From Vulcanimicrobiota bacterium (GTDB taxonomy: Bacteria > Vulcanimicrobiota > Vulcanimicrobiia > Eremiobacterales > Eremiobacteraceae): 64,000 nt of DNA. The translations under genes were made by a program, and so were the position numbers. Positions 4,371-25,404 of the stretch are shown piece by piece. Each line of letters begins with the position of its first letter. Within the stretch, counting starts at the first letter, position 1. The notes beneath the pieces were generated by a model. That model searched no databases and was not told where the DNA came from. It saw only the letters and a list, made by a program, of their open reading frames with translations. The DNA is taken from the NCBI GenBank assembly GCA_963805945.1, contig CAWDVP010000004.1:96001-160000 (forward strand), given 5' to 3'.

Positions 4371-4398
4371 CGTAGGAAACCGCGCGCCTAGCACCCAA

Positions 4399-4432
4399 GG
4401 GGCCGAGCGTACGCGCTCGGCCTTCTTCTTTT
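4399..4432 (+). terminator. Intrinsic terminator after the rhodanese gene
   Basis: GGCCGAGCG-tacg-CGCTCGGCC followed by TTCTTCTTTT. Confidence 0.7.
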
Positions 4433-4444
4433 GGGGGTGCATTT

Positions 4445-5119: not shown

Positions 5120-5180
5120 CTCGCACCGGCGTGAGGGGCGGGCGGGCGCCGGCCGTCCCTGCGTCGAATCATCCACGCCC

Positions 5181-6344
5181 ATGACGACGCCAGCCCTCGA
5201 TCTCGAGCTCAGCCGCGACGAGCAGTCGCGCTACGGCCGCCATCTCATCCTGCCGGAGATCGGCAAGGCCGGCCAGCATGCGCTCAAAAGGGCGCGGGTG
5301 CTGCTCGTCGGCGCCGGCGGACTCGGTTCGCCGCTCGCGCTGTATCTCGCGGCTGCCGGCGTCGGCACGTTGGGCATCGTCGATCACGACGTGGTCGAGC
5401 TCTCCAACCTACAACGTCAGGTGCTCCATCCCACCGGCGCGGTTGGCACGCCGAAGACCGAGTCGGCCGCGCGCACCATCGCCAACGTCAATCCGCACGT
5501 CACGGTCGAGCCGCACTCGGTCCAGCTCAGCAGCGCGAACGCGCTCGAGATCCTGGGCGGCTATGAGATCGTCGTCGACGGCAGCGACAACTTCGCCACC
5601 CGCTATCTCGTCAACGACGCGTGCGTGCTGCTCGGCAAACCCGACGTCTACGGCTCGGTGTATCGCTTCGAAGGCCAGGCGTCGGTGTTCGACGCGCGCA
5701 ACGGCCCGTGTTACCGCTGCATCTTCCCCGAGCCGCCGCCGCCAGGCGCAGTGCCGTCGTGCGAGCAGGCGGGCGTGCTCGGCGTGCTGCCGGGCATCGT
5801 GGGGCTCATCCAAGCGACGGAGACGATCAAGCTCATCACCGGCGCCGGCGCACCGCTGCTCGGACGGCTGCTGATGTTCGACGCGCTCGAGATGCGTTTC
5901 CGCGAGCTCAAGCTGCGCAAGGATCCGCAGTGCCCGGTGTGCGGCCCCAACCCCTCCATCACCGCCTTGCTCGACTACGCACAGCTTTGCGGCGATGCTC
6001 CTATTGCGAGGAACGGCGAGATGGACGACTTCGAGATCACGGTGCGCGATCTGAAGAGCAGAATGGACCGCGGCGATAAGCTCGAGCTGCTCGACGTGCG
6101 GCGGCCCGACGAGCTCGCCGTCGCGAAGCTGCCCTACACGAAATGGATCGAGATGCGCGAGCTTGCGGCGCGCATGGCAGAGCTCGACAAGAACGCGGAG
6201 ATCATCGTGTATTGCCATTCCGGCGTGCGCAGCGCGCGCGCGACGCAGATGCTGCGCCAGGCCGGCTACGCGCACGCGCGCAACCTCGCGGGCGGCATCG
6301 ACCAATGGAGCCTCGACGTCGACCCGTCGGTCGAACGCTACTGA
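5181..6344 (+). CDS. moeB: MoeB/MoeZ adenylyltransferase with C-terminal rhodanese domain
   Basis: RYGRHLILPEIG, GAGGLG, SNLQRQ, PCYRC, CPVC and YCHSGVRS motifs. Confidence 0.92.
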   Translation: MTTPALDLELSRDEQSRYGRHLILPEIGKAGQHALKRARVLLVGAGGLGSPLALYLAAAGVGTLGIVDHDVVELSNLQRQVLHPTGAVGTPKTESAARTIANVNPHVTVEPHSVQLSSANALEILGGYEIVVDGSDNFATRYLVNDACVLLGKPDVYGSVYRFEGQASVFDARNGPCYRCIFPEPPPPGAVPSCEQAGVLGVLPGIVGLIQATETIKLITGAGAPLLGRLLMFDALEMRFRELKLRKDPQCPVCGPNPSITALLDYAQLCGDAPIARNGEMDDFEITVRDLKSRMDRGDKLELLDVRRPDELAVAKLPYTKWIEMRELAARMAELDKNAEIIVYCHSGVRSARATQMLRQAGYAHARNLAGGIDQWSLDVDPSVERY

Positions 6345-7487: not shown

Positions 7488-8851
7488 TGCCGCTTTTCCC
7501 ACCATTCTTTGAACGTCTCGTCTGCCAAACGCGGCACCTCGCGCTGTTTCGCCCACGCGCCCAGCGGGCCAGGCCGCCAGCCGAGTTTCGCGAGCACGCC
7601 CGCACCCGTGCGCGCCAACCTCGTCGCGCGCCGATACTTGACCGCATCGCTCATCGCATCCGCCCACATCCCGAAGGCGGCGCGCTCGCTGCCCGAGCCG
7701 ACCGCTTTCTCGCTCACCGCTTTGTTGCGCAGGTGCACGAGCTGATGCGGCAGATCGATCTTGACCGGGCACTCCTCGCCGCACGCGCCGCACAGGCTCG
7801 AGGCGAACGGCAGTTCACCGGCCTTGTCGAGACCGAGCATCTGCGGCGTCTCGGTCGAGCCGATCGGCCCCGGATAGACCCAGCCGTACGCGTAGCCCCC
7901 GGCGCGGCGATAGATCGGACACACGTTCATGCACGCGCCGCAGCGGATGCAGTAGAGCGACTCGCGCGTCGCACGGTCTGCCATCACCTTGGTGCGGCCG
8001 GCGTCGATGATGATGCAGTACCACGTCTTGCCGTCGTCTGGCCCTAAGAAATGGTGCGTGTACACCGACAGCTTCTGGCCGGTCGCGGCGCGCGCGAGCA
8101 CGTGCAGGAACGGCGGCAGGTCCATGAGCCGCGGGATGATCTTCTCGATGCCCATGAGCGCGACGTACACCGGCGGCGCGGATGCCGAGAGCGCCTGATT
8201 GCCCTCGTTCTCGACGGTGACGACGGTGCCGGTCTCGGCGATCGCGAAATTGGCGCCGGTCATCCCGAGTTCGGCTTCCAGATAGCGCGTGCGCAGACGC
8301 GAGCGCGCGGCTTCGAGCAGCGCCTGCGGATCGTCCGTGTACGGGATGCCCAGCTTCTCGGTGAAGAGCTTGCCGATCTCTTGGCGCGACAGGTGCAGCG
8401 CCGGCGCGATGATGTGCGACGGCTTCTGGCCGGCGAGCTGCACGATGTACTCGCCGAGATCGGTCTCGACCGCGTCGATGCCGGCGGCCTCGAGCCGCTC
8501 GTTGAGCTCGAGCTCCTCCGAGAGCATCGACTTGCCTTTGACGACCGAATGCACGCCGTGCTTGCGACAGATGTCGAGGAAGTGCGCCGCGCCTTCTTCG
8601 GCGGTGCGCGCCCACAGCACGGTGCCGCCGCGCGCGCTGAACTGCTTCTCGAACTCGACGAGCAGCCAGTCGAGGTTGGCGATCGCGTATTCCTTGATCG
8701 CATGCACGCGCGCGCGCAGCTCCTGCCATGGCACCTGCTCTTGCGCGCGATGCTTGTCGTCGACGATGCGCGCCATGGTCGCCGGCATGCCGGGCGGACC
8801 GTGCGGATGCAGGAGCGCCGCGTGGACCGCCCGTTTGTCGTAGAGGCTCAC
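7484..8851 (-). CDS. lutB: Lactate utilization Fe-S protein B
   Basis: VETDLGEYIVQL, PSHIIAPALH, CIRCGACMNVCP and LCGACGEECP motifs. Confidence 0.93.
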   Translation of the reverse strand: MSLYDKRAVHAALLHPHGPPGMPATMARIVDDKHRAQEQVPWQELRARVHAIKEYAIANLDWLLVEFEKQFSARGGTVLWARTAEEGAAHFLDICRKHGVHSVVKGKSMLSEELELNERLEAAGIDAVETDLGEYIVQLAGQKPSHIIAPALHLSRQEIGKLFTEKLGIPYTDDPQALLEAARSRLRTRYLEAELGMTGANFAIAETGTVVTVENEGNQALSASAPPVYVALMGIEKIIPRLMDLPPFLHVLARAATGQKLSVYTHHFLGPDDGKTWYCIIIDAGRTKVMADRATRESLYCIRCGACMNVCPIYRRAGGYAYGWVYPGPIGSTETPQMLGLDKAGELPFASSLCGACGEECPVKIDLPHQLVHLRNKAVSEKAVGSGSERAAFGMWADAMSDAVKYRRATRLARTGAGVLAKLGWRPGPLGAWAKQREVPRLADETFKEWWEKRQ

Positions 8852-9695: not shown

Positions 9696-10490
9696 ATGGC
9701 GGACTTCAAAGGTAAGAACATCATCATCACCGGCGGCGGCAGCGGCTTGGGCGCTGCGATGGCCATACATCTCGCTGCATTGGGCGGGCGGGTCATCGTG
9801 GCCGGGCGGCGCCCGGAGATGCTCGCGGAAACGGTTGCCGCGATCGAGACCGCAGGCGGCAAGGCTGACGCCATACCGACCGACGTCCGCGTGCCCGAAC
9901 AGGTGCAGGCGCTCGTCGACGGCGTGGTCAGCAAGCACGGCAGCGTCGATTGCCTGGTCAACAACGCCGCCGGCAACTTCATCGTGCGCGCGGAAGAGCT
10001 CTCGCCGAACGGCTGGAACGCGGTGATCAACATCGTGCTCAACGGCACGTTCTATTGCTCGCGCGCCGTGGGCAAGGCGATGATCGCCGCCGGTCATGGC
10101 GGTTCGATCCTCAACATCGTCGCGGCGTACGCGTGGACCGGTGGACCCGGCACGATCCATTCCGCGGCGGCCAAGGCGGGCGTCATCTCGATGACGCAAA
10201 CGCTAGCGGTGGAGTGGGGCCATCACGGCATCCGCGTGAACGCGCTGTGTCCGGGCGTCGTGAACACGCCGGGCGCCGCCGCGAAGCTCTTCCCGACCGA
10301 GGCGATCCGCGATCGCATCGCGCGGCGCGTGCCGCTCGGCCGGCTCGAGACGTCTGACGAAGTCGCTAAGGCAGCCGCATATCTGCTGTCCGACGATGCG
10401 TCCTATGTCAACGGCGCGGTGCTGGTGGCCGACGGCGGCATGTGGCTCGATCAGGGATTGCTCGCCGCAAACGCCCCCGAAGGCATGTAG
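9696..10490 (+). CDS. SDR oxidoreductase, 2,4-dienoyl-CoA reductase-like
   Basis: TGGGSGLG, NNAAGNF and HSAAAKAG motifs. Confidence 0.85.
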   Translation: MADFKGKNIIITGGGSGLGAAMAIHLAALGGRVIVAGRRPEMLAETVAAIETAGGKADAIPTDVRVPEQVQALVDGVVSKHGSVDCLVNNAAGNFIVRAEELSPNGWNAVINIVLNGTFYCSRAVGKAMIAAGHGGSILNIVAAYAWTGGPGTIHSAAAKAGVISMTQTLAVEWGHHGIRVNALCPGVVNTPGAAAKLFPTEAIRDRIARRVPLGRLETSDEVAKAAAYLLSDDASYVNGAVLVADGGMWLDQGLLAANAPEGM

Positions 10491-10512
10491 GGGTCGACCT
10501 TTAGGTCGACCC
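10485..10512 (+). repeat. REP-like palindrome (GTAG type)
   Basis: atgtagGGGTCGACC-ttta-GGTCGACCC, identical to 13638-13665; its TAG is the SDR stop codon. Confidence 0.85.
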
Positions 10513-10516
10513 AGGA

Positions 10517-10535
10517 ATTGAGACCCATTCTCAAT
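10517..10535. promoter_or_regulatory. Fur/Zur-type operator candidate
   Basis: ATTGAGACC-C-ATTCTCAAT, similar to the perfect box at 25384-25404. Confidence 0.5.
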
Positions 10536-10581
10536 AAGAAGGCCTGAAGAACCTTGCCCTTCGCGCCGATATTGTGGATAT

Positions 10582-11196
10582 ATGAGTGACCTCGCGCTGC
10601 GGATGACCCGCGGCCTCACCCCGATGTACGTCTGCCTGGTGGTGCTGGGCAGCATCGTCGCGCACTTGGCATCCGAATTCTTCTCCATGGGTTCCGAGGC
10701 GAGCGACATCGCGCTCTCGCCCAAGCATCTGTATCTCGGCGTCGCCGCGCTCGTCTGTGCGGCGGTCGTCGTGCTGCAAGCGCGTTCGCTACTGCGATCT
10801 TCCGAAGGCGCGCGCGACCTCAAGCGCCGGCTTCATCTCGGTCTGGAAGCGCTGCCCTTGCGCGGACGCGGCCTCGCGTTCTTGACGCTTACCGCAGGAC
10901 TCCAGCTCGCCATCGGCCTCGCGACGCAGTACGGCGAGGGCTGCCCGTTCTGCGGCCACGACGTGGCAGCGGGCGTCCTCGGCGCGCTGCTCACCGTCAT
11001 CGTGCTCGCGTTTGCGGGACGCTTCATCGGCGCCCGCTTGCCGTCAATCGCCGCGGCCATCGCTGCCCTCTTCATCGAACCTTCGACCAACGCACACGCG
11101 TTGTCATCGCTACGCGACGTCGCGTCGCCGGCGTTCTTCCGCTTCATCTGGTTCAGCCAGCTCTACAACCGCCCTCCGCCTTCCCTCTCGATCTAA
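10582..11196 (+). CDS. Membrane leader protein with CxxC-GH and a C-terminal RPPP motif (putative arrest peptide)
   Basis: About 4 TM segments, CPFCGH, ends YNRPPPSLSI; paralogous to 14802-15473; directly upstream of a TonB-dependent receptor. Confidence 0.75.
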   Translation: MSDLALRMTRGLTPMYVCLVVLGSIVAHLASEFFSMGSEASDIALSPKHLYLGVAALVCAAVVVLQARSLLRSSEGARDLKRRLHLGLEALPLRGRGLAFLTLTAGLQLAIGLATQYGEGCPFCGHDVAAGVLGALLTVIVLAFAGRFIGARLPSIAAAIAALFIEPSTNAHALSSLRDVASPAFFRFIWFSQLYNRPPPSLSI

Positions 11197-11271
11197 CGGC
11201 CGAAGCACTCGGCCGCGCCCAGGACGGTCGAGTGAATTCGACCGCTCCATTCATTTTGAGAGGGAGTCATG
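11170..11271 (+). promoter_or_regulatory. Anti-SD/SD helix coupling the leader ORF to receptor translation
   Basis: TTCCCTCTCGA (11181-11191) can pair with TTGAGAGGGAG (11256-11266), enclosing two hairpins. Confidence 0.6.
11221..11250 (-). repeat. REP-like palindrome (GGAG variant)
   Basis: Minus strand reads atggagCGGTCGAA-ttca-CTCGACCGtcc. Confidence 0.75.
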
Positions 11272-13638
11272 TCATACCATCTCTTCAGCCGCCCGCTGTG
11301 GGCGGCGCTAGCGCTCGCCGGCGTGCTCGCTATGCCGTCGGTCGGCGCGTGCGCCGGAGCGTTTCTGACCGGCTCGGTGACGCTCGACGGCAAACCCGCC
11401 GCCGGTGCGACGGTCACCGCCACGGGCAACAACCTCGTGCAGACGAAGCGCACCGATGCACAGGGACGCTTCAGCTTCAGCACGCTCCAACCGGGCGCGT
11501 ACGCGCTCGACGCGGCGTGGAACGATCGGCGCGCGCATCGCTCGATCGAGCTGTCGGCGAGCGGCGCCGATGTCTCGCTGGAACTTGATCCGAAGAACAT
11601 CGGCAGCATCAAAGTCACCGCGTCGAGCGCCGCGCCCATCAGGGGCGCCGGCACCGACGTCACGCTCAACTCGACGATGCTCACCCGCACGCCGGCCGGC
11701 GGCAGCTTCCCGGAATTGCTCGTGCAGTTGCCCGGCGCGGCGCGCGGGGCCAACGGCGTGGTCCATATCAACGGCGATCACGGCGACATCAACTACATCG
11801 TCGACGGGGCCTCCATCCCGCAAGCGCTCAACCGCGTCATCGGCACCGAGTTCGACGCGAACGACGTCGCGTTCGTCGACGTGCTGCAGGGCGCGTATCC
11901 CGCGCAATACGGAGAGCGTTTCGCCAGCGTGCTCAACATCAGCACGCGCACGGGCACCGGGCCGCCCGGCGCGATCCTCGATCTCTCCGGCGGCTCGTAC
12001 GCGAACTACGATTCGACCGTCGGGTACCACGGCCCGGTCGGTGCGGGCTCACTGGTGCTGGCGGTCCGTGACGGACGCTCGAGCTACGGCCTGGACCCGC
12101 CCGATCTGACCTCGCTTCACAACGACGCGAGCGATGCCAGCCAGTTCCTCCGCTACACGGTGCCTGTCGGCCACGACTACCTCAACTTCACCATGTCGCA
12201 TTCGTATCAGACGTTCCAGGTCCCGATCGACGTGCTCGGCGGCCAGCCCGCGAGCAGCGACGACAACGAGACACAGAACGACACCTTTGCGACGCTGCAG
12301 TACCGCCGCGCCATCGCGGACCGCGGTTCGCTGTCGCTGGGCGCGGCGTATAAGCGCTCGCAGATCCGCGACTTCGGCGATCCGCTGCCCGATTGGGCGT
12401 TCGGCATAAACACGTGGGTCGGCAGCGGCGGGCTGCCGTCGGACTGCTTCAACGCGCTCACGATCACCAATTACGCCAACAGCACGTGCGCCTACACGCT
12501 TGCCGACAACCGCACCGCCACCGATTACAAGTTCAATCTCGACGACGCGCTGCGCGGCGGCGCGCACGAGGTGCGCTGGGGCGCGCTTTATGACGTGACG
12601 CTCGTGCCCAAGCTCTACGACATCACGCTGCAACCGGGCAACTATCTCGCACCGATGTTCACGCCGGGGACGCCGCTCGCGCCGTATCCGGTGATCGACA
12701 ACGCGCCGAACGTCGGCCACACCGAAGCCGCATACCTTCAAGACAGCTGGCGCATGGGCCAGGCGTATCAGCTCGACTACGGGCTGCGCGTCGACGCGTT
12801 CCAGATCTTTTCGGATCAGTTCGACCAGGGCTTTTCCATGTTCAGCCCGCGCATCAAGCTGACGCGCTTCTTCAGTCCGCGCGCGAGCGCGTACGCCTAC
12901 TACGGCCGCTTCTTCACGCCGTTCTCGTTCGAGAACGTGTCGCCGAGCGCGGCGTACCTGCTCAACCTGCCGCTTCAGCCGACGCTCGCTCAGTTCGACC
13001 TCAAGCCGCAGCGCGACTCCGATTACGAGATCGGCGGCCACTTGCCGCTCGGCAAGGGCGATCTCGGCTTGCGCGTGATGCAGAAAGACGCGACTGATCT
13101 CATCGACGACACGCAAGTAGGCGTGACGCTGCTGCACCAGGACATCAACTACCAGCTCGGGCGGATAGCCACGCAGTCGGCGTACTACCAGCAGACGCTT
13201 GCGCACGGCGGTCGTTTTTATGTGACCGGCAACCACACGTATTCGGTCAACAAAGGCTGTGAGACGCAGCTGTTGGCGCCGTGCTTCGGCTCGTCGACGG
13301 ATTGGACGCCAGCCGACCACATGCAGGCGTGGGGCGCCACCTCAGGGATCGTGCTCAACGACGCGCGCGGCGGCTGGTTCTCGATCGACGGCGAGTACGG
13401 GACCGGGCTATCGTCAGCGGGTTGCTCCGCCGCGACGCCGGGCTTCTGCGAATACACGCCGCATCTCACGTTCAACGCGGTGAAGGGCTTCGCGATCGGA
13501 CCGAAGACCGTGGCGACGGTGGGGATCGGCAACCTGCTCAACCATCAGTTCTTCATCACGTATCTCAACGCGCAGGGCAATCATTACTACCCGCCGCTCA
13601 CCGTGAACGTCGGCCTGCGCTTCGGCGTAAGCCGCTGA
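11269..13638 (+). CDS. TonB-dependent receptor-like outer-membrane protein with N-terminal carboxypeptidase-regulatory-like domain
   Basis: Signal peptide; TDAQGRFSF; plug HINGDHGDINYIVDG and GAYPAQYG; barrel YLQDSW, GLRVD, SPRI, LKPQR and NLLN motifs. Confidence 0.85.
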   Translation: MSYHLFSRPLWAALALAGVLAMPSVGACAGAFLTGSVTLDGKPAAGATVTATGNNLVQTKRTDAQGRFSFSTLQPGAYALDAAWNDRRAHRSIELSASGADVSLELDPKNIGSIKVTASSAAPIRGAGTDVTLNSTMLTRTPAGGSFPELLVQLPGAARGANGVVHINGDHGDINYIVDGASIPQALNRVIGTEFDANDVAFVDVLQGAYPAQYGERFASVLNISTRTGTGPPGAILDLSGGSYANYDSTVGYHGPVGAGSLVLAVRDGRSSYGLDPPDLTSLHNDASDASQFLRYTVPVGHDYLNFTMSHSYQTFQVPIDVLGGQPASSDDNETQNDTFATLQYRRAIADRGSLSLGAAYKRSQIRDFGDPLPDWAFGINTWVGSGGLPSDCFNALTITNYANSTCAYTLADNRTATDYKFNLDDALRGGAHEVRWGALYDVTLVPKLYDITLQPGNYLAPMFTPGTPLAPYPVIDNAPNVGHTEAAYLQDSWRMGQAYQLDYGLRVDAFQIFSDQFDQGFSMFSPRIKLTRFFSPRASAYAYYGRFFTPFSFENVSPSAAYLLNLPLQPTLAQFDLKPQRDSDYEIGGHLPLGKGDLGLRVMQKDATDLIDDTQVGVTLLHQDINYQLGRIATQSAYYQQTLAHGGRFYVTGNHTYSVNKGCETQLLAPCFGSSTDWTPADHMQAWGATSGIVLNDARGGWFSIDGEYGTGLSSAGCSAATPGFCEYTPHLTFNAVKGFAIGPKTVATVGIGNLLNHQFFITYLNAQGNHYYPPLTVNVGLRFGVSR

Positions 13639-13665
13639 TGTAGGGGTCGACCTTTAGGTCGACCC
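13638..13665 (+). repeat. REP-like palindrome (GTAG type)
   Basis: atgtagGGGTCGACC-ttta-GGTCGACCC; the loop supplies the TAA of the convergent MauE gene. Confidence 0.85.
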
Positions 13666-14094
13666 TTCGACCGGCCTCCGCCACGACCACCACATCAGAT
13701 AGATCGCGGGGATGATCGCCGCGCCGTCGCGCGCGATCGTCCACCAGGTTACCGGGTCGGTCTCGCGTGGCCCGAAGCAGCCGCACGGAGTCGGGATGCC
13801 GCGCACCACCACGGACGCGAGCGCCGCGATGAACACGAGCAGCACTGCGACCGCCACCACTGAGACGATGCGCAACTGCCAGCCGAGCAGCAGGTACACG
13901 CCCAGCACTATCTCAAGCAACGGCAAAGCGATGGCGGCGAAGCCGACGAATTGCGCCGGCAGATCGAGCCGGAAGGCGACGATCGTGGACCCGAGATCCG
14001 GCGCATGGCCCATCTTGAGGACGCCGGCGGCGATGAACACCAGCCCGACGATGATCCGGGCGATGAGGGGCAGCACGTGAAGAAGACGAGCCAA
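13654..14094 (-). CDS. MauE/DoxX-family redox-associated membrane protein
   Basis: RIIVGLVFIAAGVLK, LPLLEIVLG and CGCFG motifs. Confidence 0.88.
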   Translation of the reverse strand: MARLLHVLPLIARIIVGLVFIAAGVLKMGHAPDLGSTIVAFRLDLPAQFVGFAAIALPLLEIVLGVYLLLGWQLRIVSVVAVAVLLVFIAALASVVVRGIPTPCGCFGPRETDPVTWWTIARDGAAIIPAIYLMWWSWRRPVEGST

Positions 14095-14721
14095 GCATCA
14101 CAACCTTCCGCGAAGCCGACGACGGGACCGCGATGGGGCACCATTTTGCCAGTCATCGCGGGCGTCCTCGTCGTCATCGCGATCGCCGTATATGCGATCA
14201 CGCAATCCCACAAGCTGCCGAGCGCGGCCGTCGAGCCGAACGCGCTGCCGTCGGTGCCGCCGCCGATCAAAGTCGGCGCGCGTGCGCCCGCGTTCTCGGT
14301 GCAGACGCCGCTCGGCGCCGTCTCCAACGACACGTTCGCCGGCAAACCGTACATGGTCGAGCTGTTCGCCACATGGTGCCCGCATTGCCAGCGCATGACG
14401 GCCGTGCTGCGCTCGCTGCGCGCGAAACTGCCGGAGTCGCGCTTCGGCATGGTCTCCGTCACCGGCTCGCCGTACGCCGCAGGCTCGACGCAGGGTGCCC
14501 CCATCGCCGAGAGTCAAGCGGACGTCGACGCGTTCGACAAGTACTTCAACGTCACATGGCTGTCCGTGTGGGATCCGCAACTCACGACGGCGGCGGCGTT
14601 CGGGCTCAACGGCTTTCCGACGATCTTCATCGTGGACGCCAAGGGCACGATTGTCTATACTGCAAGCGGTGAGCTCCCCGAGGCGACGCTGCTCGCCGCC
14701 GCCCGCAAGGCAGGCGCCTGA
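14077..14721 (+). CDS. Membrane-anchored TlpA/ResA-like thiol-disulfide oxidoreductase
   Basis: N-terminal TM, FATWCPHC, cis-Pro GFPT; GTG at 14077 with GAGG upstream. Confidence 0.85.
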   Translation: MKKTSQASQPSAKPTTGPRWGTILPVIAGVLVVIAIAVYAITQSHKLPSAAVEPNALPSVPPPIKVGARAPAFSVQTPLGAVSNDTFAGKPYMVELFATWCPHCQRMTAVLRSLRAKLPESRFGMVSVTGSPYAAGSTQGAPIAESQADVDAFDKYFNVTWLSVWDPQLTTAAAFGLNGFPTIFIVDAKGTIVYTASGELPEATLLAAARKAGA

Positions 14722-14801
14722 CCTTAGAATCCGCTGAGATGTCCACCACGCGGAGCACGGCCACAGGGGGCGCGCGCCCTACGGCCTAATGTATATGCAT
14801 C

Positions 14802-15473
14802 ATGAGGAACCGGGAGGTCTGCTGGCTGTTGATCGGAGCGGTGGCACTTGGCGCATCGCTCGCGGGCCACGCCGTGCAACTCGCGATCGAGTCCGCTCAC
14901 CTCTTCGGCGGCGTGCCTGCGCGCTACAGCCACGTGCTGCAGACACCGATCTCGCTCATCATGTTCGGCGCACTCGTCGTCGCCGCGCTGTTCATCGCGC
15001 GCGGTATCCTCGAAAGCGTCTATGACGAATTCGGCGGTGCCGACTGGCTCGTGCCGGCGCTCGATGCCGTCGCGGCGATCGCGCCCGGCCGCCTCATCGC
15101 ATTGGTCGTCGGTCTGCAGCTCGCGTCGCTCATCGGCGGCGAGCTGACCGAGCAAGCGCTGTCGTCCTACGGCGCATTCGGCTTGGGAGCCATCTTCGGC
15201 CCCGGTCATCTCAGCGCGCCATTCGTGCACGTCGCCATCGGCACGCTCGCCGCGTGGCTGCTGCTCGCGTTCGCGCGCGCCGTCTGCGCTCGCGTTGCGG
15301 ATATCGCTCGCTTCGCGCGCTCGCTCATCGCGTGGGTCTCCCGGCCCGCGCGCGTCCGTTGTGCTCCGGCGCTGCGCGTCCTCGCGCTCGCCTCGGAGTC
15401 ACCCGCACCACCGCTGCTGGCGCGACACATCGCCAGCCGTCCGCCTCCGGCCGCCGCTACGCTTGTAGCATAG
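14802..15473 (+). CDS. Membrane leader protein with His residues and a C-terminal RPPP motif (putative arrest peptide)
   Basis: About 4 TM segments, GLQLA shared with the paralog, ends IASRPPPAAATLVA; upstream of the second receptor. Confidence 0.75.
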   Translation: MRNREVCWLLIGAVALGASLAGHAVQLAIESAHLFGGVPARYSHVLQTPISLIMFGALVVAALFIARGILESVYDEFGGADWLVPALDAVAAIAPGRLIALVVGLQLASLIGGELTEQALSSYGAFGLGAIFGPGHLSAPFVHVAIGTLAAWLLLAFARAVCARVADIARFARSLIAWVSRPARVRCAPALRVLALASESPAPPLLARHIASRPPPAAATLVA

Positions 15474-15534
15474 GCGGCCAAATCCGGCTTCCCGCCTTTT
15501 GGCCGCCTCCCCATAGGGTGGAGGTATGGTCTTG
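15438..15534 (+). promoter_or_regulatory. Mutually exclusive hairpin switch controlling SD access
   Basis: Hairpins 15449-15479, 15472-15508 (perfect 11-bp stem) and 15505-15525 (sequesters GGAGG). Confidence 0.65.
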
Positions 15535-17793
15535 CGTTTTCGTATTTTCTTTTTCATTTCCGTCGCATGCGCCGCGGCGCTCGCAGCGGTCGGCTCATTC
15601 GCACCGGCGTCCGCGAGCACGCTCGGCGCGATCCGCGGCACCGTCTACGATTCCGCCGGGCATCCGCTGCAGCACGCCAAGGTCGTCATCGTGGCCGGCG
15701 TCGGCACCAAGGACAGCACGGCGACCGATGCGTCCGGACGCTACATCTTCCCGCGCGTCGAGTTCGATACGTACACGGTGACCGTCACCGCGGCGGGCCT
15801 GCCGCCGAACAGCCAGATCGTGACCGTCGCGAGCGGCACCGTCACGGTACTTGATTTCCACCTCTCGGAGAAGAAGCTCGCCAGCGTCGTCACCGTCGCC
15901 AAAGCCGGGCACCCGGTGAGCGTGACCGTGATGACGCCGCAGATGATCCAGACGCTGCCGAGCAACTTCAAGCTCGCGAGCGTCACCGAGACGGTGCCCG
16001 GGGTCGTGCCGTTCTCGTACGACGAACCGGTGGTGCGCGGCTTCCACGGCGTCGCGTACTACATCGACGGCATCCCGATCCCGCAGACATCGTCGTCCGC
16101 GTTCGCCGAGGTCCTCGATCCGCGCGATATCGGCTCGGTGGAGGTCTACACAGGCTCGTTCCCCGCCGAGTACGGCGGCAGCCGCCAGGGCGGCGTGGTC
16201 AACATCATCTCCAAACGGCCGAGCGGGAACGGCGGCGACATCACGCTCACCGGCGGCAACTACGCCACCGGCGCCACGCAGCTCAGCGAATCGTTCGGCG
16301 GTCCGACCCTCAAAGCGTACGTATCGCTCAACTTCGACCGCACCGACCGCGGCCTCGATTCACCGACCGCGCAGCCCATCCATGACGCCGCGAGCCAATC
16401 GAACGAATTCATGCGGCTCACATATGTCCCCGACAGCCGCGACTCATGGGCGTTGCATTTCTCCAATCTGTTCTCGACGTTCCAGATCCCGATCGACACG
16501 AATCCGACCAGCGTGAGCTTCGCGCCGCAGGGAAGCGACGACTTGCAGTACGAGTACGCCCGCTATGCGAGCATCGTCTACAACCGCCTGAGCGCGGACG
16601 GCCAAGGCTACCTCGAGATCTCGCCCTGGTATAACCGCAGCCAGGTGAAGTTCTTCCCGGATCCGACCAACGATCTCGCGAGCGCCGCCATGGCGTCGAC
16701 CTTCCAGGATCGGGTCGGCACGTACTACGGGTTGACCGGGGCCTACTTCCGCAGCTGGACGAAGGACAATCTGAAGATCGGCTTCACCGGCGCGGTCGAG
16801 GACTTCACCAGCGCGTTCAACATCCAGTTCATCGATCCCACGACGATGATGTTGCAGCAGTTCAACGACAACGCGGCGCAGACCGGCACGAACTTCGGCA
16901 TCTACGCCGAAGACAAGATGATCCTGTCACCCATGTTCACCACGAACATCGGCCTGCGCTACGACCGCTCGACGGGTTTCACCGACGGCAACCAGGTGAG
17001 TCCGCGCTTCGAGCTCGATTACCTCGCCAATCCCAAGGAGACGGTCCATTTCTATTACGGACGCTTGTACGCGGCGCCGGCGCTCGAAGACACGCGGCGC
17101 AGCGCCGTCGTCATCGGCGGCGGCTCAGGCTTGCCGGTGTACGACCTCAAGCCCGAGACCGATTCGATCTACGAGTTCGGCTTTTCGCATCAGGTGACGC
17201 AGACGTCGAGATGGTACATCAACTATTGGGCGCGCTCCGTCGCCAACGTGCTCGACACGACCCAGATCGGCTCGACGCCGATCTTCACGATCTTCAATTC
17301 GACCTCCGGTCGCGCGCAAGGCATCGAGTTCAGCTACAGCGGGCAGGCGCAGAATCTCAACAGCTACTTCGTGTCGTATGGCCTCTCCGAGAGCCTTGCG
17401 TCGGGCATCTCGGGCGGCACGTTCCTGTTCTCTCCTGATCAGCTTCAGGGCGCCAATGGCTTCGCCCCGGAGGACCACGACCAGACTAACACGCTCAACA
17501 CCGCGTACACGTGGCGGCTGTCGAAGGACCGCCAGACCTGGACCTCGCTGCAGGCGATCTACGGCAGCGGCTATCCCGTGCAGTTCGAGAACGGACCGGG
17601 CAGGCTGCCCGCGCACTGGGAGCTCAACGCGTCGTACGGGCGCTTCGCGACGGGCGGGCATCTCGGCTACCAGCTGCAGGCGACCAACTTGACCAACAAC
17701 ATCTATCTCATCAAACTCAACAACGGCTTCAACACGACCCAATACGCGCGCGGCTTCCAGCTCACGGCGCAGATCACCGCGCCGATCCACTAG
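15526..17793 (+). CDS. TonB-dependent receptor-like outer-membrane protein (paralog of 11269-13638)
   Basis: Signal peptide; TDASGRY, VRGFHG..YYIDG, GSFPAEYG, GLRYD, SPRF, LKPE and DHDQ motifs. The real start is probably TTG 15532, given SD spacing. Confidence 0.85.
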   Translation: MVLRFRIFFFISVACAAALAAVGSFAPASASTLGAIRGTVYDSAGHPLQHAKVVIVAGVGTKDSTATDASGRYIFPRVEFDTYTVTVTAAGLPPNSQIVTVASGTVTVLDFHLSEKKLASVVTVAKAGHPVSVTVMTPQMIQTLPSNFKLASVTETVPGVVPFSYDEPVVRGFHGVAYYIDGIPIPQTSSSAFAEVLDPRDIGSVEVYTGSFPAEYGGSRQGGVVNIISKRPSGNGGDITLTGGNYATGATQLSESFGGPTLKAYVSLNFDRTDRGLDSPTAQPIHDAASQSNEFMRLTYVPDSRDSWALHFSNLFSTFQIPIDTNPTSVSFAPQGSDDLQYEYARYASIVYNRLSADGQGYLEISPWYNRSQVKFFPDPTNDLASAAMASTFQDRVGTYYGLTGAYFRSWTKDNLKIGFTGAVEDFTSAFNIQFIDPTTMMLQQFNDNAAQTGTNFGIYAEDKMILSPMFTTNIGLRYDRSTGFTDGNQVSPRFELDYLANPKETVHFYYGRLYAAPALEDTRRSAVVIGGGSGLPVYDLKPETDSIYEFGFSHQVTQTSRWYINYWARSVANVLDTTQIGSTPIFTIFNSTSGRAQGIEFSYSGQAQNLNSYFVSYGLSESLASGISGGTFLFSPDQLQGANGFAPEDHDQTNTLNTAYTWRLSKDRQTWTSLQAIYGSGYPVQFENGPGRLPAHWELNASYGRFATGGHLGYQLQATNLTNNIYLIKLNNGFNTTQYARGFQLTAQITAPIH

Positions 17794-17855
17794 CAAGTGC
17801 GGGCGTCCGGCGCTGCAAAGGCCTGGTGACGCCGCATTTTCTCTAGGAGATCGAG

Positions 17856-18722
17856 ATGGAGCGAAGCGTCTTTCTTCGGGGTTTGAGCGCCGGCGTGGCG
17901 GGAGCATCTGTTTGCGGATTGGCACCGCTCGTGGCGCGTGCGGCCGATCATGGCGATGCGCCGCATTGGACCTACGGCGGGGGTGAGGACGGCCCCGCGC
18001 ATTGGGGCGACCTCGCGCCCGACTTCCACACCTGCTCGATCGGCCAGCAGCAATCGCCGGTCAATATCAGCGACGTCGCCACCGGCGCGATCGGCGACAT
18101 CCAGCGTTCGTATCGCACCTCGCCGCTGCGCATCATCAACAATGGCCACACCATCCAGGTCGATTACGCCGCCGGCAGCACGCTCACGCTGCGCGGCCGG
18201 ATGTGGGAGATCGTCCAGTTCCACTTCCACACGCCGAGCGAGCACACGTACCAGGGCGCGCACTACGACATGGAGCTGCACATCGTGCATCAGAACACCG
18301 CGAAACATGTGTGCGTCCTCGGCGTCTTCATGAAGGCCGGCACGGCGAACGCCGAGATCCAGAAGATATGGGACGCGATGCCGATGAAGGAGGGGCCCGA
18401 GCAAACGGTGAGCGGCGTCAGCGTCAACGTCGGCGCGCTCGTGCCTGCGACGAAGGTCTACTACAACTATCTCGGTTCGTTCACCACGCCGCCGTGCACT
18501 GAGAACGTCGAATGGCTGGTGCTGCGCGATCCGATCCAGGTCTCAGCCGCGCAGATCGCGCGCTTCAAAGCGGCGATCCCGATGAACGCGCGGCCGGTGC
18601 AGCCGGTCAACCAGCGGTTGGTCATCAGAACCTGTCTACTGCGACGCGTTTGCCTGGTTGTGCAGGTACGCGTCGATGAACGACTGGATCTTGGCCTGAT
18701 CGATCGTGTCGAGCGTCCCTAA
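17856..18722 (+). CDS. Alpha-class carbonic anhydrase, exported
   Basis: QSPVNI, NNGHT, QFHFHTPSEH, ELHIVH, GSFTTPPCTE and NARPVQP motifs. The 3' end overlaps the convergent gene, so the true stop may be near 18640. Confidence 0.9.
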   Translation: MERSVFLRGLSAGVAGASVCGLAPLVARAADHGDAPHWTYGGGEDGPAHWGDLAPDFHTCSIGQQQSPVNISDVATGAIGDIQRSYRTSPLRIINNGHTIQVDYAAGSTLTLRGRMWEIVQFHFHTPSEHTYQGAHYDMELHIVHQNTAKHVCVLGVFMKAGTANAEIQKIWDAMPMKEGPEQTVSGVSVNVGALVPATKVYYNYLGSFTTPPCTENVEWLVLRDPIQVSAAQIARFKAAIPMNARPVQPVNQRLVIRTCLLRRVCLVVQVRVDERLDLGLIDRVERP

Positions 18723-19303
18723 TCGCGTCCACGCGGTCACCGCGATCTTGTGCTTCATGCCTGGATACGGCGCGACGATGACCGCTTGGCCGGATTCTTC
18801 AGCGCTCTGGACGTCTGCCGGCAGCGGCTGGAGCTGGCTCACCGGGACCAGTTTCGAGTCGTAGGTATAGGCGATCTGGTAGAGCGCACCCGCGATGTCC
18901 GGACAGTTGCAGTTGTACTGCAGCAGCACGTTGCCGTGCTCGAGCAGATGGACTTGCACCCACTTGGGCAGCGGCGTCGGGCTGTTGAACGAATCGTTGA
19001 ACGCCTCTTTGTGCGGCCCGGACGTCGGCGGGTCGGAGTTGTAGGCGAAGTCGGTGGACTCGCCAGCATCGAAATGCTTGTGCCCCTGCGACGGGTAGTG
19101 CGTGCCCAGGAATTTGAGCATGATGACCGTCCCCGCCGAGGCGCTCGCCGCGGCAGCGGTTGCGCCCGACGGCGCCGGGGATGCGCTCGCATCGCTGGCG
19201 GATTTGGTGCAGCCGCCGACGGCAAGCGCGAGGGCGATTGCGCCGGCCGCTGCGATGGCCTGTAGTGCCCGAGCGAAGCTCGGGTTTTTTCTTTCGTCGT
19301 CAT
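18636..19303 (-). CDS. DUF3105-like lipoprotein (probable 1-nt indel near the start)
   Basis: YNSDPPTSGPH, VHLLEHG and AWTR motifs; lipobox AVGGC. The coupled ATG at 19303 is one base out of frame; an alternative in-frame TTG lies at 19328. Confidence 0.75.
19262..19284 (+). repeat. REP-like palindrome, type B
   Basis: GTAGTG-CCCGAGC-gaa-GCTCGGG, identical to 63191-63213 and to the reverse complement of 48240-48262. Confidence 0.85.
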
Positions 19304-19983
19304 TGCGTCGAATTCGCCTGGTTCGCAAGATACGCGTTGATGAAGCGGATGATCGTCGCCTGATCGAACGCGTCGAGCCACTCGAGCCGCGTCCAGGCGG
19401 TGAGCGCGATCTTGTGCTTCATGCCCGGATACGGCGCGACGATGACGCCGGTGCCGCGCTCTTCGACGCCCTGCGCCAAGTCAGCCGTGAAACCGGTCGC
19501 GCCCGGCGGCAGCTGCCGGTTGTTGTACTCGGCGGCGAGCTGCGCCAATGCGCCTGCGATATCGGGGCACTGGCAGCTGTACTGCATCAACACGTTGCCG
19601 TGCTCGAGCAAGTGGACCTGCATGTACTTGGGAAGCGGCTGCATGCTGATGAGCTCCTGGGAGAACTGCTCGAGGTGCATGCCCGAGGTCGGCGGATCGG
19701 AGCTGTAATGGAAGGTCGAGACGCCGGCGTCATCGGGTCCCTTCTTATCGTGACCTTGATGGCCTTGCGATTTGAAGAACAGGCCCGGCGTCTCGCGGGG
19801 TCCCGGCGACGCGGTCGACGTGGCCGCGGGCGAAGGGCTTGCGCTGACCGCCGACGGCGGGTTGCGGTGCGAGATGCTCATGACGATGAGCGCGACGATG
19901 GCGATGACGACGAAGGCGGCGAACGCGAGCGTCGCCATGCGGGCGGTCTGGTCGGCCGCCGGCGTGGTGGATTTCTTCGACAT
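19300..19983 (-). CDS. DUF3105-like membrane-anchored protein
   Basis: N-terminal TM; YSSDPPTSGMH, VHLLEHG and AWTR motifs; tandem paralog. Confidence 0.8.
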   Translation of the reverse strand: MSKKSTTPAADQTARMATLAFAAFVVIAIVALIVMSISHRNPPSAVSASPSPAATSTASPGPRETPGLFFKSQGHQGHDKKGPDDAGVSTFHYSSDPPTSGMHLEQFSQELISMQPLPKYMQVHLLEHGNVLMQYSCQCPDIAGALAQLAAEYNNRQLPPGATGFTADLAQGVEERGTGVIVAPYPGMKHKIALTAWTRLEWLDAFDQATIIRFINAYLANQANSTQ

Positions 19984-20048: not shown

Positions 20049-21542
20049 TCAGGGTACCGCATGCAGCGCATTCACGAATGCGTAGATGACGAGCGGCACG
20101 GCGATGACCACATAGATGCGCAAGAGCCATAACAGCGCCGTCACGCCAGGCCCGAGCTTGCGGCGGGGCAGAGGCGGCCTCATTTCGGGATGATGTTCGG
20201 GAACACGGTGATGACGCCGTATGCCGAACCCATGAGCGCGATGATGATGATGATGGCGCCTCCCAGCGCTTGCTCTTCCACCCGTTCGCCAGCGGTCCGA
20301 TGACCTCACGGTCGTTGGCGAGCAGGAGCAAGAACAGCAGCGCCGGCGCCATCAGCAGGGTGGCGATGACGTTGACGGCAGATCGTGATGGCGAGCAGCG
20401 GCGCGTGCGGGATCAGCACGACGGCGGCGGCGACGACGACCGAGACGATGGCCGACGCGTAGAACGGCCGCGCGCTGGCGAAATCCGGCGTTGAGGCTGT
20501 GCGCGCGCGGATACTCTCGCCGAACGCGTAGGCCGAGCTCGTGGAGATCGTCATCGCGGCCACCAGCCCGGCCTCGATGATGCCGAGCGCGAACAGCGTC
20601 GCCGCCTGTGCCCGCCGAGCAACGGCTGCAGCGCGGTCGCGAAGTCGGCGCCGCTGGCGAAGCTGACGAGACGTTGACATGATGCGATGAAGAGCGGCGC
20701 GGCGGCCACGAGAGTGGCGATCGCGGCGACCGCCGCGACCGCCGCGCCGATCGCGGTGTCGAACCGGCCCTGCGGCAGATCGGCTCGCGCCAGGCCTTTG
20801 TCCACCACCGCGCTCTGCTGGAAGAAGATCATCCACGGCGTGACCGTGGCGCCGATGTCGCCAGGATGAGCGTCACGAAGCGCAGCAGTCGAGCCCGCCT
20901 GGCAGCGGGCTCCAGGTGCCGAACGCGTGCGCCAGCGCCGCCCCGCTCGGATGCGCCAAGAGCGCCGCGGGGACGAACAGCAGGTTGAACGCCGCGAGCG
21001 CCAGCACGGCGCGCTCCCAGGTGAAGTAGCGCCGCATGCGAGCGACGCGAAGATCACAGGCCGCGCCGCCCGCCACCGACAGCCAGCGGCGCGGAGATGC
21101 CGAAGTACAGCCCACCGGCCTGGATCGCGATGAACTCGGTGATCAGGGTCAGCACGTTGCCGAACGGCGAGATCGACCATCGAGAAGTAGCCCCAGAACG
21201 GCCGAAGCGGTCGAAGATGAGCTCGGCATGTCCGCGATGCGTCGCGATGCCGAGACGCACCGTCATCTCCTGCACGACGAACGCCATGAAGAACGTGAGC
21301 AGGATGAACGGGACGAAGAAACCGATGCCGTAGGTCGCGCCGGTCGTCGCGTACGAGAGCATGCTCGGGCCGTCGTTCTCGCCGAGCATGACCAGAATGC
21401 CGGGACCCGCGAGCAGGAAGTACAACCAGATGGGCTGGTGTTCGCGGCGCGCTTCGACCACCCGCGCTCGATCGCGCGCGCGCAGCGTCTCCTCGCGCGA
21501 CGCGCGCTGGTCCGCGGCGGAGACCTCCACGAACTCACCCAT
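20049..21542 (-). pseudogene. Nramp-family divalent metal transporter (multiple frameshifts, likely sequence errors)
   Basis: GPGILVMLGENDG, QEMTVRLG, IGATVTPWMIFFQQS and LLLLANDRE motifs split over several frames. Confidence 0.8.
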
Positions 21543-22230
21543 GCGCGGCAGCCTTCACCCGGATCGCCGTGCAGCGCACTTCGCCGGCGGCCTTGCGCGC
21601 GACGGTCAAAGATCGCCGGCCGATCCGCAACCGGATGCCGGCCGCGCTTGCGGACTCCACCGTGCCGCGTAAACCCGGCAGCACGCCTCGTTCGCGCAGA
21701 TACTTGACCGCCGCTTCATCGCGATCGTCGAGAAACGTGACGACCACCGTGTCGCCGCGACCGGTATCCGAAAGACGCATGCCCTTCGCCTTGACGTTCG
21801 CACCGCGCGGCGACGGGATGGGATGCCCATGCGGATCGGTCGCCGGATTGCCGAGGAAGTCGGCGAGTCGGCGCGCGATGTCGTCCGAGATCGCGTGCTC
21901 GATCTTCTCCGCGTCCGCGTGGACGCGCTCGAGCGGCACCTTCAGCGCGAGATGGAGGAACGTCTCGACGAGGCGATGCCGGCGCACCATGTCGAGCGCG
22001 AGACGCGTGCCGCGCGCGGTCAGCTGCAGCAGGCCGCCCGCGCCGAGGTCGCGCACGAAGCCGCGCCGCTGCAGGTCGCGCACCAGCTTGCTCACCGACG
22101 CGCGTGACACGCCGAGGCGCCGCGCCACATCCGCCGACTTGACGGGCTCGCCTCCGCCGAGCTGGTAGATCGCCTTGCAGTAGTCCTGCCGCGCACGCTC
22201 CGGCGAACGGTCGCCGCCGGCGTTAACCAT
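21535..22230 (-). CDS. DtxR/MntR-family metal-dependent repressor with FeoA/SH3 domain
   Basis: QDYCKAIY, VSRASVS, RRHRLVETFL, AEKIEH and DPHGHPIP motifs. Confidence 0.92.
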   Translation of the reverse strand: MVNAGGDRSPERARQDYCKAIYQLGGGEPVKSADVARRLGVSRASVSKLVRDLQRRGFVRDLGAGGLLQLTARGTRLALDMVRRHRLVETFLHLALKVPLERVHADAEKIEHAISDDIARRLADFLGNPATDPHGHPIPSPRGANVKAKGMRLSDTGRGDTVVVTFLDDRDEAAVKYLRERGVLPGLRGTVESASAAGIRLRIGRRSLTVARKAAGEVRCTAIRVKAAAHG

Positions 22231-22253
22231 AGCTAACGTCAACCATGGTTAAC
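22222..22253. promoter_or_regulatory. Tandem 16-bp imperfect palindromes, candidate DtxR/MntR operator
   Basis: GTTAACCATAGCTAAC followed by GTCAACCATGGTTAAC, overlapping the start codon. Confidence 0.6.
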
Positions 22254-22287
22254 AGTTTAGCGGCTGGCCGGCCCTCTTCCTCTGGCG

Positions 22288-22316
22288 ATGTAGGGGCCGA
22301 TCTTCAGATCGGCCCT
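22288..22316 (+). repeat. REP-like palindrome (GTAG type)
   Basis: atgtagGGGCCGATC-ttca-GATCGGCCC. Confidence 0.8.
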
Positions 22317-23592: not shown

Positions 23593-23593
23593 G

Positions 23594-25369: not shown

Positions 25370-25383
25370 GCGGCCACGATTCT

Positions 25384-25404
25384 TATCGAGAATCATTCTC
25401 GATA
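25384..25404. promoter_or_regulatory. Fur/Zur box upstream of the metal ABC operon
   Basis: Perfect 10-1-10 palindrome TATCGAGAAT-C-ATTCTCGATA about 15 nt upstream of the znuA-like start. Confidence 0.75.

Follow-up and report, generated by a model that had tools for sequence, protein, structure and literature searches.

Conserved four-helix leader genes ending in Arg-Pro-Pro-Pro precede TonB-dependent receptor genes in Eremiobacterota and are candidate arrest-peptide sensors

We analyzed a stretch of 64,000 nucleotides (G000:C4:96001-160000, hereafter the window) from the 2.3-Mb genome of a Vulcanimicrobiota bacterium (G000; 67% G+C), whose protein relatives carry the names Candidatus Eremiobacteraceae, Eremiobacteraeota or Vulcanimicrobiota. 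Two genes in the window, which we call leader A and leader B, encode predicted four-helix membrane proteins. Both are confirmed as genuine conserved genes, each located directly before one of two paralogous genes for TonB-dependent receptors, TBDR1 and TBDR2 (Table 1). Both leaders end in the motif Arg-Pro-Pro-Pro (RPPP), and the mRNA at or just behind the motif is predicted to pair with the Shine-Dalgarno (SD) sequence of the receptor gene. This observation is confirmed and lies far beyond chance. Comparative and predicted-structure evidence, together with the analogy to CruR, CutF and the RAPP arrest peptides, leads us to regard the leaders as probable co-translational arrest-peptide sensors of the RxPP type, which would unmask the ribosome-binding site of the receptor gene.

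The G+C contents at codon positions 1/2/3 (0.66/0.50/0.83 for leader A and 0.74/0.54/0.82 for leader B) match those of neighbouring real genes, and homologues were found for both leaders. These data confirm a first-pass annotation, made from the sequence of the window, that had proposed two open reading frames (ORFs) of 204 and 223 aa with about four transmembrane (TM) segments each in front of receptor genes. The motifs it quoted (IVAHL/LAGHA, PKHL/YSHV, GLQLA, CPFCGH and GH..FVH) are all present in the sequences, and the RPPP that it had placed a few codons before the stop is followed by 4 or 7 codons. Its description of the receptors as paralogues also holds, with 26% identity between TBDR1 and TBDR2 over 673 columns (E 2e-42). 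TBDR1 contains a barrel (2e-12) and a CarboxypepD_reg domain (6.3e-10), and its Plug match of 22.6 bits lies 1.3 below the cut-off of 23.9. In TBDR2, both Plug (7.4e-14) and barrel (8.2e-15) are above the cut-off, next to CarboxypepD_reg (4.2e-17). A TTG at 15532 may be the true start of TBDR2, which would give the usual SD spacing. The substrate of the receptors is not readable from their sequences: PDB matches reached only E ~1e-3, and NCBIfam matches were far under the cut-offs.

The motif is the best conserved part of the leaders. RPPP is invariant in 36 of 36 diverse members of family A and in all 28 homologues of leader B, in which the longer string LARHIASRPPP is nearly invariant. To tally the motif more widely, we used the best 150 of 160 representatives from a broad profile search. 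Among these, 128 carry RPPP at the aligned place, followed by 0-13 residues in 121 proteins and by 40-50 more in 7; two have RAPP at exactly the aligned place and three have LPPP. The remainder consists of 15 partial matches that break off before profile position 170, one that reaches position 197 without the motif, and a 1175-aa proline-repeat protein taken as a false match. The Arg of the motif is kept in all members except the three with LPPP. The first-pass annotation had proposed that homologues should keep R-x-P-P, and this is borne out by the 128 RPPP and 2 RAPP proteins and by the invariance within family A. Among relatives, the codons of the motif vary synonymously (CGC, CGG, CGT, CGA or AGA for Arg; all four CCN for Pro). 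The idea that RPPP is an RNA by-product was rejected for family A, in which the anti-SD segment follows the Pro codons, and Pro and Arg alike are encoded by freely varying codons. As judged by this sequence comparison, RPPP is under selection as a peptide.

At E <= 0.01, 103 homologues of leader A were found, with identities down to 38%; leader B has 27, down to 57% identity. The family-A profile matches 73 of 401 genomes of the phylum (G000 counted in, and five of the 73 being flagged as unpublished); these fall into the window's own taxonomic family (25/29) and one second family (47/297), with none in 19 others (0/74). A broader profile run against 1.84 billion representatives returned only 160 proteins at E <= 0.001. 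Furthermore, a pattern scan with one genome per species gave 15 loci, ten of which are titled Eremiobacteraeota, Vulcanimicrobiota or Eremiobacteraceae; two of the five otherwise titled loci are contigs that a genome search places in the window's own family. Within the reach of these searches, the leader families are restricted to Eremiobacterota (Vulcanimicrobiota). They correspond to no established protein family in the databases searched: Pfam (scanned up to E 0.1) gave only DUF4231 for leader A, below its cut-off at E 0.086, and nothing for leader B, and NCBIfam has no family for either. A Foldseek search of the leader-A model against the PDB returned nothing at E <= 1e-3, the best hits being globins with TM-scores of ~0.2. 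In the Protein Atlas, the family-A homologue P0003 led only to unnamed clusters, one of them mainly from Actinomycetota. A literature search at title and abstract level found no description of this leader family.

We then compared the window with regions from 20 relatives, none from a flagged genome, and collected all ORFs of 150-330 aa with RPPP and at most 16 further residues at the end. The resulting 40 ORFs form three BLAST clusters, A (n=22), B (n=14) and D (n=4). Leaders A and B align by BLASTP only in a 9-residue stretch around RPPP (E 0.35). Profile-profile comparison of A and B gave a probability of 26% with shallow alignments and of 75% (E 2.5e-5, TM3 to C-terminus) with broader ones; A and D matched over nearly their full length (63%, E 6.8e-5), and B and D with a probability of 32%. 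A recent duplication of the leaders was rejected, as there is no BLASTP similarity outside RPPP; if a duplication took place it was an ancient one, and homology of A and B appears likely but unproven from these profiles.

AlphaFold2 predicts one plan for both leaders (pLDDT 80 for leader A and 72 for leader B), which comprises TM1, TM2, a short helix, TM3, a loop, TM4 and a tail. The C-terminal tails are probably outside the fold, because confidence is low there. Only 12 columns are invariant in leader A among 36 members down to 27% identity, namely H28, E32, G37, H49, L52, E119, G120, D127 and R197-P198-P199-P200. Conserved residues of leader B are H23, E30, H44, Q106, E114, E117, H136 and R213-P214-P215-P216, and its C-terminal Ala is invariant. 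The CPFC motif is found in most A members; it is missing in some (for example those with the form GEGAPIAGHD) and in B. A His in helix 1, another where helix 2 begins and a Glu where helix 3 ends are common to families A, B and D, and it is probable, though not proven, that these families are one old superfamily. Leader A has two Arg before helix 1, eight Arg/Lys between helices 2 and 3, and none in the loop from E119 to D127; this charge distribution in the sequence suggests that both termini are cytoplasmic and that the conserved ligands lie at the periplasmic face. The loop Glu and the Arg of the motif are 78 residues apart in 113 of 146 members (76-80 overall), and the intervening sequence is poorly conserved. 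The 10-15 residues before RPPP are conserved within each family (W-x3-L-[FY]-N in A; PPLLA-x-x-[IL]-A-[NS] in B), and the 25 residues preceding them are variable.

As a separate observation, all 14 B-type leaders (window 15471-15473; L032-L044) have Ala as their last residue, preceded by a small or hydrophobic one (LVA, ARA, ISA, ITA, LFA, HFA, FSA, SPA, SFA). These ends are reminiscent of C-terminal degradation tags, and would fit a sensor that is destroyed after release, as reported for CutF.

The position of the leaders in front of receptor genes is conserved as well. A gene similar to TBDR1 or TBDR2 (E < 1e-5) follows on the same strand within 400 nt of 36 of the 40 RPPP-tailed ORFs, in agreement with the expectation of the first-pass annotation that the leaders stay before transporter genes. 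Most gaps between leader stop and receptor start measure 32-94 nt, the exceptions being one of 119 and another of 196 nt. Two D-type leaders (tail ...RRFARPPP...) precede other genes: L048:5344-5889 (-) lies 37 nt before a CopC-CopD-signal peptidase S26 fusion (3279-5306, -), and L045:7540-8154 (+) lies 44 nt before a gene for an SCO1/SenC lipoprotein (8198-8725, +). In two further genomes, the D-type leaders lie before TBDR2-like receptors. One B-type leader is followed by a 318-aa ORF without a known family and then by a CopD-cytochrome c fusion. The genes beside the modules in relatives include SCO1/SenC, a CusF-SCO1 fusion, DsbD_TM/CcdA, TlpA-like redoxins, MauE and DUF3105, and this gene set is that of copper delivery to cuproenzymes. 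We also noted an orphan copy, a second B-type leader (L039:2064-2717, -) that lies after a second receptor gene at the end of the operon, with no gene behind it on the same strand and a convergent phosphoesterase gene next.

In order to obtain information on the link between leader and receptor, we folded 141 nt around each of the two junctions of the window. Both the minimum free energy (MFE) and the centroid structures contain a helix between the end of the leader and the SD of the receptor gene (Table 1). Junction A folds with -46.6 kcal/mol (z -2.78), and junction B with -62.1 kcal/mol (z -3.59); in the latter, the Pro codons themselves pair with GGAGG. We extended the analysis to 35 junctions, omitting the one with the 196-nt gap, the start of which is uncertain, and counted the SD as sequestered when its core had a pairing probability >= 0.5 with the 39-nt stretch that begins with the Arg codon and extends 27 nt beyond RPPP. 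By this measure the SD is predicted to be sequestered in 30 of 35 junctions (17/21 in A, 11/12 in B and 2/2 in D), and its pairing partner is in all cases located either within the Pro codons (by 2-9 nt) or behind them (by 2-8 nt). When the 39-nt stretch was shuffled (20 replicates), on average 7.8 of 35 junctions and at most 11 showed the pairing, and it was found in only 15 of 136 other same-strand junctions of the genome (11%).

The helix is additionally backed by covariation. Ribosome binding places no constraint on the three base pairs 5' of the SD core. Among 32 junctions, these pairs are present in 100%, 91% and 81% and comprise all four Watson-Crick types, compared to an average of ~42% and a peak by position of 62-69% when the partners were randomly re-dealt; the register comes from the MFE fold, a choice that is somewhat in favour of pairing. 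An example is CUCCUAG/CUAGGAG in one junction and CUCCUAA/UUAGGAG in another. With the second Pro codon of the motif in the P-site, ~15 nt downstream are inside the ribosome, and therefore every anti-SD arm would be covered. The modelled junctions thus combine an SD-sequestering helix with an other arm that would lie under a ribosome stalled at RPPP, an arrangement that suggests control of the SecM/MifM/CutF type. In family A, a semi-conserved Leu two residues after RPPP (NRPPPxL; window 11182-11190) coincides with the anti-SD CUCC. This Leu is probably an RNA by-product, since CUC-C supplies CUCC. The first-pass annotation had read the leaders as a larger, membrane-embedded version of the DUF2946 sensor leaders; the regulatory coupling in that reading is supported by the covarying helix, whereas the leaders themselves are not members of DUF2946.

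Table 1 Positions of the leader-receptor modules and of their predicted regulatory elements in the window.
Feature	Position	Strand	Description
Candidate palindromic operator, Fur-family type	10518..10534		TTGAGAcccaTTCTCAA; sits 64 nt before leader A
Leader A	10582..11196	+	204 aa, predicted four-TM protein; loop GEGCPFCGHD
RPPP codons of leader A	11170..11181	+	CGC CCT CCG CCT; proposed arrest site, P199 in P-site and P200 in A-site (geometry by analogy to excerpts of PMC12992588)
Anti-SD arm A	11181..11191	+	UUCCCUCUCGA; last codons of leader A; in MFE and centroid folds, pairing probability 1.00
SD arm of TBDR1	11256..11266	+	UUGAGAGGGAG; predicted partner of 11181-11191
TBDR1	11269..13638	+	789 aa, TonB-dependent receptor with N-terminal carboxypeptidase-regulatory-like domain
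MauE/DoxX-family membrane protein	13654..14094	-	Between both modules; MauE 1.1e-22 (Pfam)
TlpA/ResA/DsbE-like periplasmic thiol-disulfide oxidoreductase	13951..14721	+	Between both modules (Pfam, NCBIfam)
Leader B	14802..15473	+	223 aa, predicted four-TM protein
RPPP codons of leader B	15438..15449	+	CGT CCG CCT CCG
Anti-SD arm B	15443..15452	+	GCCUCCGGCC; overlaps Pro codons of leader B; in MFE and centroid folds, probability 0.97
SD arm of TBDR2	15516..15525	+	GGGUGGAGGU; predicted partner of 15443-15452
TBDR2	15526..17793	+	755 aa, TonB-dependent receptor; carboxypeptidase-regulatory-like domain N-terminal as in TBDR1

These observations fit the following mechanism. The leader would insert into the inner membrane as a four-helix bundle with cytoplasmic N- and C-terminus, so that the conserved His and Glu, and in A also Cys, Met and Asp, point towards the periplasm. 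The ribosome would stall at RPPP, the P-site being occupied by the second Pro and the A-site by the third. In free mRNA, the RPPP codons or the next 8 nt would pair with the receptor SD and block translation, whereas a stalled ribosome would hide the anti-SD arm, free the SD and allow the receptor to be made. The stall would be ended by a signal that completes the folding of the TM3-loop-TM4 hairpin, the likeliest being a metal in the periplasmic site, with copper as the leading candidate; the arrest would be released by the pull of the folding hairpin on the fixed 78-residue tether. After release, translation would terminate a few codons on, the helix would re-form, and receptor synthesis would stop. 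We infer the stall itself, its ligand and the direction of the response from the analogy to known systems. A wider reading, to which we give slightly less than an even chance, is that A, B and D form a phylum-specific superfamily of polytopic co-translational metal sensors, in which RPPP unites the strongest polyproline stall known with an RxPP arrest core. Insertion of the last hairpin would complete a periplasmic His/Glu(/Cys) site as the ribosome, 78 residues behind, reaches RPPP, and occupancy of the site would time the cover of the anti-SD and so set the translation of a small copper-acquisition regulon (two receptor types, CopC-CopD and SCO1). If true, these leaders would provide the first example both of a natural RPPP arrest peptide and of a membrane-embedded sensor-leader for TonB-dependent receptors.

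Several points weigh against an arrest mechanism. Plain translational coupling would explain the RNA data without arrest, because a ribosome terminating 3-13 codons downstream also opens the helix. Five of the 35 junctions lack the SD pairing, Pro codons are inherently complementary to GGAGG, and in family B the anti-SD consists of the Pro codons. Three representatives have Leu in place of the Arg (LPPP). RPPP stalls in Escherichia coli are rescued by elongation factor P (EF-P), the present genome has EF-P, and a long arrest would need help from upstream residues. In addition, RPPP is not depleted in the proteome relative to plain composition (9 observed, 8.8 expected), a Fur-type box before leader A that recurs before the ZnuA operon speaks against a firm choice of the metal (see below), and the strong conservation of polar residues in the helices also suits a stable working membrane protein.

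The last point leads to a different explanation, in which the four-helix proteins are working parts of the uptake system, such as an inner-membrane permease or chaperone, the helix only couples translation, and RPPP is a feature of the mature protein, for example a binding or turnover motif. The invariance of the polar helix residues down to 27% identity, the confidently predicted bundle and the lack of another obvious inner-membrane transporter in the window's modules all speak for such a role, and a terminating ribosome would open the helix too. However, the tail is predicted to be disordered, and RPPP is common to A, B and D, which otherwise share almost nothing. Two members carry RAPP, the canonical arrest core, and the fixed 78-residue spacing over a variable linker suits a tether more than a domain. 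Overall, we consider this explanation improbable as a replacement for arrest; the two are compatible, and one protein could do both.

The arrest reading draws on published systems, which are summarized here from excerpts of the respective papers. In RAPP peptides the Arg is irreplaceable (PMC12992588). The A132P variant of ApdP, which corresponds to RPPP, is nearly intact for arrest in Bacillus subtilis (2.4 vs 1.9 units) and intermediate in E. coli, A121P in ApdA is partly permissive, and random-library screens returned RxPP with x = G, A, S or P (PMC12992588). ApdP and ApdA thus resemble the leaders in the R-x-P-P core, their irreplaceable Arg matching the invariant Arg seen here. They differ in that they monitor Sec/YidC and regulate genes for protein localisation, and in that RPPP is a laboratory mutant there, whereas it is natural and nearly universal here. 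The leaders described here have the features by which RxPP arrest peptides are recognized, i.e. a conserved core (x = Pro), N-terminal TM segments (AlphaFold2) and a close downstream gene on the same strand.

The sensor-leader of the first-pass annotation is less novel than was assumed there: excerpts of PMC12992588 report an over-representation of RAPP/RGPP ORFs before genes for TonB-dependent receptors, YcnI, PCuAC, PepSY and thioredoxin, as well as four-TM RAPP peptides with predicted metal sites. The four-TM RAPP peptides of Streptomyces lividans arrest in vitro, and one has a predicted 3-His/1-Met site (PMC12992588). Similarly to the leaders, the RAPP/RGPP peptides of this organism (e.g. 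SLIV_18480) have four TM segments, conserved His/Met/Cys in a predicted metal site, a C-terminal RxPP and a downstream gene for metal homeostasis (PMC12992588). Unlike the leaders, and as far as their published description goes, they belong to another phylum, carry RAPP/RGPP and lie before genes other than those for TonB receptors.

CruR of Bordetella pertussis, which is encoded before BfrG/CrtA, is likewise a leader directly before a TonB-dependent transporter (PMC9426467, PMC12914433, PMC12992588). It shares with the leaders a C-terminal R-x-P-P shortly ahead of the stop codon, a metal-ligand motif whose spacing to the arrest core is conserved, and a copper-supply context; some crtA operons include SCO1 and PCuAC. 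CruR arrests in vitro at RAPP (PMC12992588), and its CXXC-RAPP spacing matters (PMC9426467). It is, however, a 145-aa exported DUF2946 protein with a signal peptide, CXXC and a RAPP core, whereas leaders A and B are four-helix membrane proteins of ~200 aa with no Pfam family and an RPPP core. In the CruR system, copper relieves the arrest, and Rho then terminates ahead of the receptor gene (PMC9426467), acting over a gap of 162 nt; the device visible here is the covarying SD-sequestering helix. A mode like that of CruR, in which a ribosome halted at RPPP shields a C-rich site from Rho and thereby lets transcription reach the receptor gene, with the SD helix being secondary, would fit the precedent of a leader before a TonB-dependent transporter (PMC9426467), the C-rich leader tails and the extra hairpins in the junctions, including a weak terminator-like site at 11230-11247. 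It has only a slim chance in our view, as the SD-anti-SD helix covaries and is much commoner than in the controls, and the junctions are mostly 32-94 nt long (one 119, one 196), compared to 162 nt for cruR (PMC9973294). The two modes might also add.

CutF, located before cutO in Rhodobacter capsulatus, is a precedent for the RNA part of the arrest reading. It requires its Cu motif, its Pro-rich end and an SD-shielding stem-loop (PMC9973294), and it resembles the leaders in the Pro-rich C-terminus, in the Cu-binding motif, in a stem-loop that is opened by the leader-translating ribosome, and in that the periplasmic metal is sensed during export (PMC9973294). CutF differs as a small Sec-exported protein, the motif of which alone gave no strong stalling in PMC9973294. 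Its target is a detoxifying oxidase, and copper prolongs the stall and induces (PMC9973294). The opposite sign of the response would be expected here, because the targets are uptake genes and not a detoxifying oxidase.

RPPP as read in the sequence also has the XPPP form of EF-P-dependent polyproline pause sites. According to excerpts of PMC4176338, RPPP gives the strongest stall among XPPP motifs in an E. coli protein context, is under-represented in that organism and depends on EF-P; the rescue by EF-P is also reported in bioRxiv 10.1101/2024.08.03.606492. The EF-P family has a match above cut-off in the present genome. We counted motifs in about 1,900 non-overlapping ORFs, for which the numbers are small: RAPP was observed 6 times with 21 expected, AAPP 30 times with 34 expected, and APPP 52 times with 14 expected. 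Relative to APPP, RPPP is depleted about as much as RAPP is relative to AAPP (9 vs 52; 6 vs 30). The nine RPPP include those of the two leaders and three cases within the first 18 residues of possibly over-long ORFs. We additionally noticed two ORFs of the same genome with R-x-P-P-like tails, 700 nt apart on opposite strands, which may be further arrest-type leaders: a 123-aa ORF with the tail ...MMRTPPPAA (C2:662041-662412, +) and a 195-aa ORF with the tail ...FRRPPLEASER and a weak DUF1648 match below cut-off (C2:663076-663663, -).

The modules also seem to be under a second layer of control. The palindrome TTGAGAA-N3-TTCTCAA, which we take to resemble a Fur-family box, has three sites within 2 mismatches in the whole 2.3-Mb genome: before leader A (10518-10534), directly before a ZnuA-family gene (25386-25402), and at C2:682802 between two ORFs without a Pfam family. 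With up to 3 mismatches, the box was found near the starts of 15 of 22 A-type leaders (relatives L032-L050 included), compared to 43 of 2000 random 400-nt windows, and where A and B leaders are divergent the palindrome is located between them. Scans for sigma-70 and terminator consensus sequences gave results at chance level, and an Rfam search of positions 10000-18000 at E <= 1 gave no match, hence no known riboswitch.

This box bears on the possibility that RPPP is a mere EF-P-dependent polyproline pause that sets the ratio of leader to receptor or ties it to EF-P activity, with no sensing of a ligand and with transcriptional regulation via the Fur-type operator. Such a pause would agree with the strength of RPPP among the EF-P-rescued XPPP pauses of E. 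coli (PMC4176338), with the EF-P encoded in the genome and with the conserved box. We regard it as quite improbable, as it leaves unexplained a membrane protein of ~200 aa with invariant His/Glu sites and a fixed tether, B- and D-type leaders are often without the box, and the related RAPP arrests are refractory to EF-P according to the excerpts of PMC12992588.

With respect to the signal, copper has about an even chance. In its favour are the neighbours in relatives (SCO1, CusF-SCO1, CopC-CopD, CopD-cytochrome c and TlpA-like redoxins), the Cys-Pro-x-Cys, Met and His of leader A, and the CruR/CrtA precedent; the CrtA receptor family provides copper to heme-copper oxidases (PMC12914433). Against certainty on this point, the ligands of family B are His and Glu only, some A members lack the Cys pair, and the Fur-type palindrome before leader A is shared with the ZnuA-ABC-Fur-DtxR-Nramp operon, directly upstream of which one of its three genomic sites lies. 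A metal other than copper or zinc is clearly less likely than copper, and zinc itself is unlikely.

The Fur, DtxR, Nramp and ZnuABC genes that the first-pass annotation had pointed out in the surroundings are indeed present on the minus strand at 21.0-25.4 kb, in the form of an Nramp fragment, a DtxR/MntR-like and a Fur-family gene, an ABC-3 permease, an ABC ATPase and a ZnuA-family binding protein. This metal-transport operon (21054-25396, -) looks broken. ZnuA-family matches lie in two overlapping frames (24364-25377 and 24527-25396), those to the ABC ATPase are divided between 23371-24120 and 24099-24488, residues 1-45 of the Fur-family ORF (22316-22936) match the C-terminus of an ABC-3 permease, and the Nramp match is confined to a 162-aa ORF. 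The breaks could be frameshifts from assembly errors or real decay. Between the two modules, the listed start of the TlpA-like ORF is probably too early, because the ORF overlaps the MauE gene. Behind TBDR2 (17856-19983) lie a eukaryotic-type (alpha) carbonic anhydrase and two tandem DUF3105 paralogues; in the region L035 of a relative, a DUF3105 gene is likewise found near a TBDR2-type receptor.

RAPP/RGPP leaders before TonB receptors and four-helix RAPP arrest peptides were reported in 2022-2025. New here are the RPPP core, the polytopic sensor, the SD-sequestering helix before TonB receptors, the three paralogous families and the phylum. Published genome-wide searches for arrest peptides relied, as far as their excerpts go, on RAPP/RGPP motifs, and searches limited in this way miss whole families. 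Only now are arrest peptides being recognized that respond to cues outside the secretion machinery, and the present family would offer an unusually clean case, with a fixed tether, a visible periplasmic ligand site and an RNA switch backed by covariation. It also offers three paralogous versions before different copper-handling genes and natural RPPP/RAPP variation. Overall, the leaders would provide a first handle on metal regulation in Eremiobacterota, which are known here from metagenome-assembled genomes alone.

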